Below, one piece after another: positions 55,001-58,000 of a stretch of 64,000 bases of DNA. Where the stretch lies: NCBI RefSeq assembly GCF_054482525.1, contig NZ_CM137006.1; one strand, written 5' to 3'. Position 1 is the first letter of the stretch; every line of letters begins with the position of its first letter. Made by a program: the position numbers.

Positions 55001-58000
55001 GATGAATTCGTTAATTGTCCGCATGGGCCCACAACACTTTTCTGTTCTCTGGCATCAGACAGGAGAAAGTGAGTGAGTTCTATCCTTGAGATTTTTTTCC
55101 CGCTTTGCGCCACTGATCCCATCCGTTGGCAGCGTCGTACCGCCGACGTGGAGTGCGGCATCTGGCCTGACGTCGCTAACGAACAGCTTCAGCAATGGCT
55201 GCAAACTGATGCGATTCGACTCTACATTCCCGGCGAATGGATCAGCGTCTGGCAGGTTGAACTGCCTGATGTGCCCCGCAAGCAGATACCGACGATTCTG
55301 CCCGCCTTACTGGAAGAAGAACTGAACCAGGATATCGATGAACTGCATTTCGCCCCGTTGAAAATCGACCAGCAACTGGCAACCGTAGCTGTGATTCACC
55401 AGCAGCATATGCGCAACATTGCGCAGTGGTTGCAGGCAAACGGCATCACCCGCGCTACCGTCGCGCCAGACTGGATGTCCATTCCTTGTGGCTATATGGC
55501 TGGCGATGCGCAACGGGTTATCTGCCGCATCGATGAATGCCGGGGATGGAGCGCCGGGCGGGCGCTGGCTCCGGTCATGTTCCGCGCACAGCTCAATGAG
55601 CAGAATTTACCGCTTTCGCTAACCGTAGTCGGGATCGCGCCGGAAGAGCTATCTGCATGGGCTGACGCAGACGCTGAACGCCTGACAGTTACGGCCCTGC
55701 CAGCCGTTACCACTTATGGCGAACCGGAAGGGAACCTGCTAACAGGGCCGTGGCAGCCTCGTGTCAGCTACCGAAAACAGTGGGCGCGCTGGCGGGTGAT
55801 GATTCTGCCGATATTGCTGATTCTGGTTGCGCTGGTAGTGGAACGGGGCGTGACGTTATGGAGCGTCAGCGAACAGGTGGCGCAAAGCCGCACCCAGGCG
55901 GAGAAACAGTTCTTAACGCTATTCCCGGAGCAGAAGCGGATTGTGAATTTACGCTCTCAGGTGACGATGGCGCTGAAAAAATATCGCCCACAGGCCGACG
56001 ATACCCGGCTGCTCGCAGAATTGTCAGCGATCGCCAGTACCCTGAAATCAGCGTCACTTACCGACATCGAAATGCGTGGTTTCACCTTTGATCAAAAACG
56101 CCAGACGCTTCACCTCCAGCTACGGGCTGCGAACTTTGCCAGCTTCGACAAACTGCGTAGCGCACTGGCGGCAGATTATGTTGTGCAACAGGACGCGTTA
56201 CAGAAAGAGGGTGATGCGGTTTCCGGCGGCGTAACGTTGCGGAGGAAATAACATGTTACGCGATAAATTTATTCAATATTTTCAGCAATGGCGTGAACGC
56301 CAGTTAAGCCGTGGCGAACACTGGCTAGCACAGCACCTGGCGGGGCGTTCGCCGCGTGAAAAAGGCATGTTACTGGCAGCGGTGGTGTTCCTGTTTAGCG
56401 TCGGATATTACGTCCTCATCTGGCAGCCGTTGAGCGAACGGATTGAGCAGCGGGAGACAATGTTGCAGCAGCTCGTGGCGATGAACGCGCGACTGAAGAG
56501 CACTGCGCCGAATATTATTGCGGCGCGAAAATCCGGCACGACAACGCCCGTTCAGCTATCGCGGGTTATCAGTGACAGTGCGTCGGCGCACTCTGTGGTC
56601 ATCAAGCGGATAGCCGAGCGCGGGGAGAATATTCAGGTCTGGATAGAACCTGTGGTGTTTAATGACCTGCTGAACTGGTTAAACGCGCTGGATGAAAAAT
56701 ATGCGCTGCAGGTGACACAAATTGATGTCAGTGCAGATGAAAAGGCAGGAATGGTGAACGTGCAGCGACTGGAGTTTGGGCGGGGGTAGGTTTTGCCATT
56801 TCCTTAACCCCACCTGATAACCCTTAGCCCAATGGTGAGTGCGGAACTGTCAAACCCGCTCACCGGGCTGAGTTTCGATGTAGCAAGAATTATCTCCCTC
56901 CAGACCACCACGGAATATTCGGTAACACTGAAGGAACCTGTTTTTCACCATGTAGCCTTCGTTAATCGACACCTTTCTAAGACTGTAAAGATGCTTAAGT
57001 GTTTTGACACATTATGATTATTAATAGTTGTAATAAATCATTGAGTAACAATTGATAGGTCAAAACATATAGGATAATTCTTATGTGATCTGTATTTTGT
57101 GTAGCCTGGAAATTAGTAAAATTACTGGAGATAATCAGAAAGGGAATTTCAAATAAGCATAATAATTTCCAGGGAAACTATTCGACGATTTTAAGAAATG
57201 TCTGCTCAGGTATATCTACTGAGGGATAATGCTGGCTGTAACGCTGGTTAAAATAAATGTACAAAATAATCAAGATGTATATTTTAATTGATGAAAATAA
57301 TTACTCACGGAATTATTAGTGGGGCTTAAATAACACCGTTTAAATGTGATGTAAATCACAAATGTGACTGTAAAGAGGGGGCTGTAGATATAAATAAGAA
57401 GTACATGAGTGAATTTTAAATAGGGAAATAGTTTCTCGGTGAACAATTTATTGGTAATCAATCGCGTGCGTTCTGGTTTGAAACAGATTGCAGGTATTGT
57501 TACGCATAAAATCCATAGGTGATATTATAATCAAGTAGTTAACAGTAATAACAAAAAATAATTTCCTGAGAAATTAACTCTACATTCTAAAACGGCCAGT
57601 TTTCTGAAGTTACCAGAAGACCGAATACATTCATGCCTGAAGAATGGATTAGAAGAAACGAGACGGAAATAGAACTATTTATCCCTGCGGAAATAATTTC
57701 TGCTGAAATTTTTTGCGGCTATTAAAAAGGTCAAACCGTCTGAGTAAATTTTATCCAGTTACAAATAAGCATTACCTCCAGTGTATTGGTAGCTGTTAAG
57801 CCAAGGGCGGTAGCGTACCTGAAGAGATTAGGATCACATCATCAAATGGCAAGAAGTGGATTTGAAGTCCAGAAAGTCACCGTAGAGGCATTATTTCTAC
57901 GAGAAATACGAACACGCTTTGGTAAGTTCCGTCTGGGATATTTGTGGGCGATTCTCGAACCCTCTGCGCATTTGCTGATACTGTTGGGCATTTTTGGTTA

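Follow-up and report, generated by a model that had tools for sequence, protein, structure and literature searches.

What lies between gspM and kpsM, where the chromosomal core gives way to the capsule genes? The stretch of DNA analysed here (64,000 nt, referred to as the window) leaves about a kilobase between these two genes, which could in principle be a control region, a repository of overlooked small genes or the scar of an integration event. The gspM coding sequence ends at 56789 and the kpsM start, taken from its PGAP placement in the near-identical genome AH50 (3 mismatches to the window in 27,211 bp), is at 57846; the gap from the gspM stop to the kpsM ATG is therefore 56790-57845, or 1056 bp. 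With very little doubt, we assign this interval to an E. coli group 2 (kps) capsule cluster, as its PR3 regulatory region together with the 5' untranslated leader. The PR3 promoter and 741-nt 5' UTR of the K5/K1 group 2 capsule cluster were reportedly described by Stevens (1997) and Xue (2009). As read from the sequence, the interval is located between gspM and kpsMT, is ~96% identical to its K5 counterpart and carries a complete JUMPstart/ops element; transcription, H-NS/SlyA binding, thermoregulation and RfaH dependence would apply here by transfer from work on K5/K1. The features are collected in Table 1. The best NCBIfam match of kpsM is KpsM, at 189.6 bits, which is under that model's 300-bit cut-off.

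Table 1. Features of the gspM-kpsM interval and its flanking genes, in window coordinates
Feature	Position	Strand	Basis
gspM/yghD, last gene of the T2SS-beta operon	56253-56789	+	NCBIfam YghD NF007274, 394 bits; Pfam T2SSM; PGAP in AH50
Proximal segment, non-AT-rich (GC 0.48); gspM 3' flank, upstream of promoter	56790-56984	+	
Stable hairpin 36 nt past the gspM stop, without U-tract	56825-56870	+	MFE -23.0 kcal/mol, z = -3.9
Putative upstream H-NS/SlyA footprint (transferred)	56970-57084	.	PMC8960920 and start at 57105
PR3 core: candidate -10 TATTTT (57093-57098) and inferred start ~57105 (range 57105-57117)	57093-57105	+	
Putative 5' UTR of the transcript for kpsMT and region 2, ~741 nt	57105-57845	+	Published start and Nissle alignment
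Candidate 5'-terminal stem-loop	57105-57173	+	MFE -18.2 kcal/mol, z = -3.9; inverted repeat I2
20-nt repeat copy 1, TAATAATTTCCAGGGAAACT	57160-57179	+	Repeat family D1
Putative downstream H-NS site (transferred)	57245-57323	.	PMC8960920
20-nt repeat copy 2, AAATAATTTCCTGAGAAATT, itself a small palindrome	57556-57575	+	Repeat family D1
Terminator-like hairpin with repeat copy 3 and following or overlapping T-run	57685-57718	+	Terminator scan (57687-57703 plus T-run)
JUMPstart element	57779-57817	+	Rfam RF01707, 58.5 bits (gathering score 35), E = 3.4e-12
ops, GGCGGTAGCGTA	57806-57817	+	8-nt core perfect, T11 present, position 12 = A
AGGA, sole Shine-Dalgarno-like motif, weak or distant	57830-57833	+	Read from sequence; 12 nt before kpsM ATG
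kpsM, ABC-2 permease of the capsule exporter	57846-58622	+	PGAP start in AH50; Pfam ABC2_membrane
kpsT, ABC ATPase; start overlaps kpsM stop	58619-59311	+	PGAP in AH50; NCBIfam/Pfam scans

In a blastn comparison, K-12 matches the window at 92.9% identity up to position 56788 and no further. Since homology to K-12 ends exactly at the gspM stop codon, the interval begins at the junction of the K-12 core with the capsule locus, which is where the initial annotation had drawn the core-to-capsule boundary. The same abrupt ending, pheV on the far side of the cluster, and a segment (56790-56984) that exists as two unrelated-looking alleles could also be taken to mean that a pheV-integrated island brought in kps and left the interval as its scar or att junction, and that a boundary, not regulation, explains the sequence. 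This is extremely improbable: an att scar was rejected because the window holds no pheV-derived repeat (a search for the pheV 3' end that allowed up to 3 mismatches was negative), the attR repeats of AH50 and CFT073 are at the far end of kps, before kpsF, and GI-pheV ends before kps, which is without an integrase (PMC11537424, PMC10272209).

The PR3 reading also fits what is found past the window end. In AH50, kpsS-C-U-D-E-F follow in convergent orientation and pheV adjoins yqgA-speC, 103.5 kb from the gspM stop; region 1, PR1 and pheV are located where the model predicts, and the earlier expectation of region 1 genes and pheV beyond the window is borne out in that genome. The integrases are found past kpsF together with three copies of the pheV 3' end, an arrangement shared by CFT073. 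In both genomes the pheV 3' end recurs as an attR between the islands and kpsF, followed by 48 nt of K-12-like pheV-downstream sequence; in AH50 the last attR (L002, 3931-3952) gives way to these 48 nt, then to IS110/IS4 remnants and then to kps. Members of GI-pheV lie between the pheV attL and attR with a P4-type integrase beside pheV, and kps, together with the interval, is located elsewhere. Judged by this arrangement, kps is pheV-adjacent, in the pheV-yghD gap, and outside the integrase- and attR-bounded GI-pheV. The proposal that kps forms part of a pheV-associated island thus holds for adjacency to pheV, but not for inclusion in the attR-bounded pheV islands of AH50 and CFT073.

The likeness to the K5/K1 PR3 and its 741-nt 5' UTR extends through the interval. 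Aligned with the kpsM leader of Nissle 1917 (a K5 strain, but not the K5 isolate used for the PR3 experiments), 1017 positions are identical over 1074 columns, and the window allele is without 12 nt that the Nissle leader has. The two share a sequence family and a place immediately ahead of kpsMT, on the gspM side; ops and kpsM are separated by 28 nt, AT-rich tracts fall at the H-NS footprints and region 1 is convergent, so that there is no difference of kind. Region 2 differs from that of K5/K1, with glf and genes for a sugar dehydrogenase, an acyltransferase and glycosyltransferases. Of 5426 complete E. coli genomes, 1699 have the leader, in every case ahead of the ABC permease; it also occurs in E. 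whittamii and a cryptic-clade Escherichia, and over 57105-57845 Escherichia leaders show 88-99% conservation. Scanning 100,044 species genomes with a 17-mer yielded 65 loci, only three of which align by blastn to the window region (E. coli E69, E. whittamii and Escherichia sp. E1V33). Group 3 loci (K10/K54/K96 type, e.g., CB6886) keep the first ~430 bp beside gspM, the JUMPstart and the first codons of the group 2 kpsM; the middle of the leader (~57220-57750) is deleted, kpsM is a frameshifted remnant and the functional kpsD-M-T-E are located further on.

The GC content of the interval is 0.355, as against 0.556 for the gsp operon, and is uneven: 0.477 for 56790-56984 and 0.328 for 56985-57845. 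The interval had been described as AT-rich, which is right overall, but AT-richness starts only at ~56985. The GC-richer proximal segment comprises two strongly divergent alleles among kps-positive Escherichia, with JNE25/C8 representing the divergent one (alignment A1); for H26-H28, E69 and E. whittamii the megablast match begins only at ~56983. Both alleles retain the inner stem of the hairpin that follows gspM (95.5% of cells pair), with no compensatory change; the hairpin may form the 3' end or a stabiliser of the gsp transcript.

Placing the promoter within the AT-rich remainder relies on published coordinates, with start-site and footprint positions taken from a 2022 review: a single PR3 start, 741 bp ahead of kpsM and served by a -10 without a -35 element, an H-NS/SlyA footprint from -135 to -21, and a downstream H-NS site from +141 to +219 that is needed for repression at 20°C (PMC8960920). 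Simple arithmetic (57846 - 741) transfers the start to 57105, with an uncertainty of ~12 nt from strain indels; by way of the Nissle K5 alignment, with its 12 extra nt downstream, -741 falls at 57117. The candidate -10, a TAnnnT hexamer, ends 7 nt before 57105 and lies in a 16-nt block (57087-57102) that is invariant in 11/11 sequences; it is not close to the -10 consensus and has no -35 match. With the start set at 57105, the transferred H-NS footprints coincide with the lowest-GC bins: the tract 56990-57089 has a GC content of 0.24-0.26 and 92-95% conservation, and the bin 57240-57289 is the lowest of the interval (0.20). Because the published start is 741 bp upstream of kpsM, the untranslated leader would span ~0.74 kb; the first ~315 bp (56790-57104), preceding the start, would not be leader but gspM flank, upstream H-NS site and promoter. 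The untranslated leader of about 1 kb proposed at the outset would thus be correct in being long and too generous in its extent. By analogy with the published start, transcription would not begin beside kpsM, an arrangement that would have left no long leader.

The architecture of promoter, 5' UTR and ops matches the published one (PMC8960920), as had been anticipated in assigning the interval to an H-NS/IHF/RfaH-controlled region 3 promoter; IHF is the part that falls away, no role for it having been published at PR3. The interval has a single match to the IHF consensus, at 57529, and two to the H-NS motif, both weak; since they are at chance level and IHF has no published role at PR3, we make no use of them. 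MprA, LrhA, Fur/FNR and RcsAB are all implicated at PR3 without mapped sites.

Is PR3 the only source of transcripts entering the leader? Additional promoters in the interval, or read-through from gsp, might add to those of PR3, much as PR1 was found to have three tandem promoters (PMC8960920). The hairpin after gspM is without a U-tract, so gsp termination may be leaky. The candidates for further promoters are the single full sigma-70-type match, TGGAAA-17-GATAAT at 57107-57135, which is not the candidate PR3 -10, and an exact TATAAT at 57526-57531 in a nearly invariant block of the leader alignment. The statistics do not favour them: the full sigma-70 scan finds that 1 site where 4.0 are expected from shuffles, so that the interval shows no promoter enrichment, and its 16 -10-like hexamers, the exact TATAAT included, compare with 11.1 +/- 3.1 expected from composition (91 of 1000 shuffles reach 16). 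The several -10-like sequences of the initial annotation are indeed present, but at the level that chance provides for this composition; they are a by-product of AT-richness. With a single start mapped at -741 in the published work (PMC8960920), a contribution from extra promoters or read-through is unlikely, though it merits more credence than the other alternatives considered here.

An unannotated gene for a small protein or small RNA is very improbable. Six ORFs of 30-63 aa can be drawn in the interval, the candidates being a 30-aa ORF at 57633-57725, a 61-aa ORF at 56832-57017 and an antisense 63-aa ORF at 57270-57461. Of 10 full-length leaders, 8 have the antisense ORF open and 8 keep the first 26 residues of the 30-aa ORF. 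Yet for each of the six there are homologues with a stop or frameshift, so none is conserved (0/6 intact in all 10-11 homologous leaders), Shine-Dalgarno signals are poor, the three ORFs tested against NCBIfam and Pfam have no match, and no PGAP annotation lies under the interval match in any genome listed, out of the ~1700 that have it. A permissive Rfam scan of 56000-59000 returns the JUMPstart and no other RNA family. Hidden genes were rejected on ORF conservation and the lack of an NCBIfam or Pfam match, and the assertion that no credible ORF lies between gspM and kpsM stands.

If the leader is untranslated, its RNA may nevertheless be structured. Position 57105 is the first base of the candidate 5'-terminal stem-loop, which no shuffle folds as well as (0/200); in its 11-bp outer stem CCUGGAAAUUA pairs with UAAUUUCCAGG, and as DNA it consists of the repeat motif discussed below and its inverted counterpart. 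Nine inner pairs of this stem are kept in 9-11 of 11 sequences and two outer ones are not, with no covariation. The terminator-like hairpin farther downstream (MFE -10.6 kcal/mol, z = -2.2; 94% of cells paired, again no covariation) is a candidate attenuator upstream of ops, and the UTR is described as moderating the transcription that reaches kpsM (PMC8960920). Over 11 sequences, four candidate helices pair in 92% of cells, which is no better than column shuffles, with one compensatory change; the leader RNA structures are thus conjecture, divergence within Escherichia being too low for a real test.

The 20-nt repeat occurs in three copies in the leader, the third (57691-57710) inside the terminator-like hairpin, with a fourth in long-form alleles and the inverted form at the transcript 5' end. 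Its AATAATTTCY motif has three matches in the 64 kb (0.37 expected), all of them in the leader. At copy 2 there is a 117-bp indel (alignment A1, columns 781-897): long-form leaders have an extra repeat copy together with ~97 bp immediately upstream, and Nissle has a 10-nt duplication at the same spot. The insert is carried by 419 of ~1700 genomes with the leader, for a division of ~25% long and ~75% short forms; the window allele is of the common short form, and CFT073-type leaders carry the insert. One may suppose that the palindromic repeat AAATAATTTCC-N4-GAAATT is functional, either as the operator of a regulator not so far assigned to PR3 or, alternatively, through RNA or DNA hairpins that may meter the transcription reaching ops, and that recombination between copies yields the length polymorphism; we consider this decidedly unlikely. 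If it were so, copy recombination would generate the 117-bp polymorphism and capsule expression would be tuned differently between lineages.

The JUMPstart is located on the coding strand ahead of kpsM, kpsT and at least seven same-strand region 2 genes. The match covers positions 1-38 of the 38-position model, is the only one in the 64 kb, and is invariant at all but two positions across 10 full-length leaders. The ops core GGCGGTAG within it (57806-57813) stands 32 nt before the kpsM ATG, in agreement with the ~30 bp first noted. The bare 8-mer is not diagnostic by itself, because the window has 5 copies (1.28 expected) and only the one at 57806 is in a complete JUMPstart. Relative to the ops consensus GGCGGTAGCGTG (PMC5995543), the kps element retains every base essential for RfaH recruitment (G4, G5, T6, A7, G8 and the C3:G8 pair; PMC5995543), as well as T11. 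Position 12 is A, not the consensus G, here and in 10/10 full-length kps leaders, so the TG pause dinucleotide found at positions 11-12 of all validated K-12 RfaH targets (PMC5995543) becomes TA. A G12C substitution abolishes the U11 pause and retains RfaH recruitment in vitro (PMC5995543), and the K5 kps ops is reported to be RfaH-dependent, a dependence known only for K5/K1 strains (PMC8960920); the A12 ops is therefore a variant within the family and not excluded from it.

On the PR3 reading, expression of this cluster would proceed as follows. A sigma-70 promoter with a -10 and no -35 element would fire at ~57105, as in K5. At 20°C, H-NS on the two most AT-rich tracts flanking the start (~56970-57084 and 57245-57323) would silence it; at 37°C, SlyA together with H-NS would confer full promoter activity. 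The non-coding leader of ~741 nt would then damp the transcription reaching kpsM, with the hairpin at 57685-57718 as a candidate cause. At ops, the non-template strand GGCGGTAGCGTA would bring RfaH to the elongation complex, rendering polymerase resistant to pausing and Rho-dependent termination, and RfaH could also bring a ribosome to the weakly signalled kpsM start. Given this action of RfaH (PMC5995543), transcription would pass kpsMT into the very AT-rich, serotype-specific region 2 (GC 0.33).

Comparison with other systems places the locus further. The JUMPstart/ops elements of rfa (waa), rfb, hly and tra share the full-length RF01707 match, the perfect 8-nt core and T11, and the operon whose leader carries the kps ops is likewise long, AT-rich, horizontally acquired and devoted to surface polysaccharide; the kps element differs in being ~700 nt from its promoter, whereas ops of the RfaH regulon sits near the promoter, and in having TA in place of TG. 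PR1, upstream of kpsF, resembles PR3 in being AT-rich and H-NS/SlyA-controlled and in having a long untranslated stretch, and it has a short similarity to the repeat motif (AATAATAATCTCCTGAAAAAT against AAAAATAATTTCCTGAGAAAT; 18/21). Motifs common to the two regions amount to short, marginal similarities (best E = 0.02). Three tandem promoters and an IHF site at +140 distinguish PR1, which lacks ops; at PR3 a single start has been mapped, ops is present and a role for IHF is not established.

The observation made at the gspM-kpsM interval is thus confirmed as real and as already known, being the published PR3 control region, leader and RfaH loading signal, and the central reading of the initial annotation, a core-capsule boundary with a PR3-type leader, is supported. 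No new biology is involved, as the literature has described the promoter and long leader, together with control by H-NS/SlyA and antitermination through RfaH/ops, since 1997-2009. The by-products are exact feature coordinates in the window allele and the placement of kps outside the attR-bounded pheV islands, and two small points are testable: the natural A12 ops variant, and the repeat-bounded 117-bp indel, by which kps-positive E. coli fall into two classes of leader length. Since genome records leave the region unannotated, recognising it correctly is of value for annotation, and this is the region that decides production of the group 2 capsule in the host by extraintestinal pathogenic E. 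coli.

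The interval between gspM (yghD) and kpsM (window positions 56790-57845) is confirmed as the promoter, 5' untranslated and ops region of region 3 (PR3) of group 2 capsule clusters, long known from E. coli. Window 36790-64000 differs from the poultry liver isolate E. coli AH50 (NZ_CP169755.1) by 3 mismatches in 27,211 bp, and because of this near-identity the AH50 annotation is used for the flanks and for sequence past the window end. The borders are those of the initial annotation, enclosing exactly 1056 bp. The interval is carried by 1699 of 5426 complete E. coli genomes, as a rule once per genome, between yghD and an ABC-2 permease gene; beyond E. 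coli it is found only in E. whittamii and one cryptic-clade Escherichia. Aligned at full length with the leader of Nissle 1917, a K5 strain, it has 1017 identical positions in 1074 columns. The original reading as a capsule region 3 promoter is correct in substance.

Coordinates of features in the window and in related genomes (L002 and L003, AH50 stretches beyond the window end; L008, CFT073)
Feature	Position	Strand	Basis or remark
gspM/yghD	ends 56789		AH50 annotation and family scans
kpsM	starts 57846		AH50 annotation
ops 8-nt core GGCGGTAG	57806-57813	+	sequence match
JUMPstart	57779-57817		Rfam RF01707, 58.5 bits (cut-off 35)
First region 2 genes	59543-61297; 61304-63046	+	proteins of 584 and 580 aa, hypothetical in AH50
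sRNA C0719	37864-38085	-	Rfam gathering-level match, 297 bits
sRNA ES173	2640-2703	-	Rfam gathering-level match, 99 bits
pheV 3' end, three copies, AH50	L002 3883-3952; L002 31046-31075; L003 34850-34927
CFT073 long-form leader	L008 19294-20466	-

No genome record annotates a feature in the interval. Stops or frameshifts break each of its six ORFs (30-63 aa) in some of 10-11 aligned homologous leaders, and NCBIfam and Pfam give no match for the three tested, which upholds the claim that no credible ORF separates gspM from kpsM. The AT-richness also claimed holds overall (GC 0.355, versus 0.556 for the gsp operon) but sets in only at ~56985, with GC 0.48 in the first 195 bp (56790-56984) and 0.33 thereafter. 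In the leader alignment, this first segment falls into two very divergent alleles, each of which retains a hairpin (-23 kcal/mol) just 3' of gspM; no candidate hairpin of the interval has covariation support. The several -10-like hexamers are indeed present, but their number (16) is at the chance level for the composition (11.1 +/- 3.1); a sigma-70 scan of the interval finds 1 site versus 4.0 expected.

PR3 is placed 741 bp before the kpsM ATG, with a sigma-70 -10 element and no -35; H-NS leaves footprints at -135 to -21 and at +141 to +219, of which the downstream one is essential to silencing at 20 C (PMC8960920, Aldawood and Roberts 2022 review). The predicted start is accordingly 57105, or 57117 by way of the Nissle alignment (12 extra nt downstream). 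TATTTT (TAnnnT) at 57093-57098 ends 7 nt upstream of 57105, has no accompanying -35, and sits within a 16-nt stretch identical across 11/11 sequences. The transferred H-NS footprints (56970-57084 and 57245-57323) coincide with the lowest-GC bins of the interval (0.24-0.26 and 0.20, respectively), and a stem-loop at 57105-57173 (-18.2 kcal/mol, z = -3.9) has 57105 as its first base. As consistency checks, hexamer, footprint composition and stem-loop would all fit a start at 57105. The untranslated leader is thus long, as proposed, but by the published start site measures ~0.74 kb rather than ~1 kb; by the same transferred coordinates, 56790-57104 would comprise gspM flank, upstream H-NS site and promoter.

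The ops core said to precede kpsM is there, within a full JUMPstart. Its 8-mer occurs 5 times in the window (1.28 expected); the other four exact copies, at 16658, 23733 and 32447 (+) and 49330 (-), have no JUMPstart context, so the 8-mer alone is unreliable as an ops call. The 12-nt ops ends exactly 28 nt 5' of the kpsM ATG, and the reviewed PR3 has ops 28 bp upstream of kpsM, with RfaH-driven read-through into region 2 (PMC8960920). In 10/10 full-length kps leaders, position 12 of ops is A (GGCGGTAGCGTA). The consensus has G, the TG at positions 11-12 being common to all validated K-12 targets, and a G12C change abolishes the U11 pause in vitro while retaining RfaH recruitment (PMC5995543). 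By analogy with G12C, its A12 would make the kps ops a natural pause-weakened variant, yet one reported to be RfaH-dependent.

The leader contains three copies of the 20-nt repeat AAATAATTTCCTGAGAAATT (57160, 57556 and 57691), whose 10-nt core is confined to the leader within the 64 kb (0.37 expected). The copy at 57556 bounds a 117-bp indel (57555/57556): long-form leaders (CFT073, ATCC 25922 and others) have one extra repeat copy plus ~97 bp, as would be expected from deletion or duplication between direct repeats. The insert is present in 419 genomes, ~25% of those bearing the leader, and the window belongs to the commoner short class. At this site Nissle 1917 carries a duplication of 10 nt, which marks the spot as an indel hot spot. 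We very much doubt that repeats and indel are functional. The repeat motif also matches AATAATAATCTCCTGAAAAAT in PR1, the promoter region upstream of kpsF (18/21), and ATAATCAAGTAG at window 57527-57561 matches ATAGTCAAGTAG in AH50 PR1 (L002 ~1580-1613, minus strand); these short similarities are statistically marginal (E = 0.02-0.17) and may correspond to conserved boxes of older literature. In CB6886, a group 3 capsule strain (L005 6001-6720), the interval is kept over its first ~430 bp, an internal stretch of the leader (~57220-57750) is deleted, and JUMPstart, with a remnant of group 2 kpsM that is frameshifted, precedes the strain's own kpsD-M-T-E genes.

Region 1 genes and pheV had been predicted past the window end, and both are there in AH50: kpsS-C-U-D-E-F, convergent, at 13-21 kb from the gspM stop, and pheV, adjoining yqgA-speC, at 103.5 kb. 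Between pheV and kpsF lie two tandem integrase-bearing islands (~80 kb), whose limits are set by three copies of the pheV 3' end: that of intact pheV, an internal one beside the second integrase, and a terminal attR. Beyond this last copy (TTCGATTCCGAGTCCGG-CACCA, L002 3931-3952) come 48 nt resembling K-12 pheV-downstream sequence, in the same order and with the terminator, and then, toward kps, the IS110/IS4 remnants, PR1 and kps itself; CFT073 is arranged likewise. The kps locus, initially taken as probably part of a pheV-associated island, is therefore pheV-adjacent but outside the integrative islands, in agreement with reports that the PAI may be missing while kps, which has no integrase, remains (PMC10272209). 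Since K-12 homology on the gspM side ends at the gspM stop codon and the 64-kb window has no pheV-derived repeat, the kps block is a separate replacement that fills the space between pheV and yghD.

The two first region 2 proteins have no Pfam match and no similarity to each other. Downstream AH50 region 2 genes encode a GT2 glycosyltransferase, Glf (UDP-galactopyranose mutase), an acyltransferase, a nucleotide-sugar dehydrogenase and a GT-A glycosyltransferase. This gene set suggests an O-acetylated polymer with galactofuranose and a uronic acid, which may be K93/K53-like. In the Nissle 1917 assembly (NZ_CP007799.1, L016 2483-4234), kpsS and kpsT overlap, the kfi genes of region 2 being missing from between them, which, given a K5 strain, looks like assembly collapse rather than biology.

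Position, K5 leader homology, JUMPstart/ops, lack of coding capacity and AT-rich tracts are features of the DNA itself; the regulatory steps are carried over from K5/K1 work and the RfaH mechanism (PMC5995543). H-NS would bridge or nucleate on tracts flanking the start, silencing PR3 at low temperature; at 37 C, SlyA, which works jointly with H-NS at that temperature (PMC8960920), would with it permit initiation, and the ~741 nt leader would be transcribed. The long UTR moderates the amount of transcription arriving at region 3 (PMC8960920); a terminator-like hairpin followed by a T-run (57685-57718) is a plausible candidate contributor. The non-template strand at ops would then recruit RfaH, which would suppress pausing and Rho-dependent termination and could recruit a ribosome (AGGA, the sole SD-like motif, is 12 nt from the ATG), letting transcription run on through kpsMT (GC 0.42) into region 2 (GC 0.33). 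The PR3/5' UTR/ops feature was already known; the A12 ops variant, the 20-nt repeat, the 117-bp indel and the gspM-side alleles are absent from the reviews consulted.
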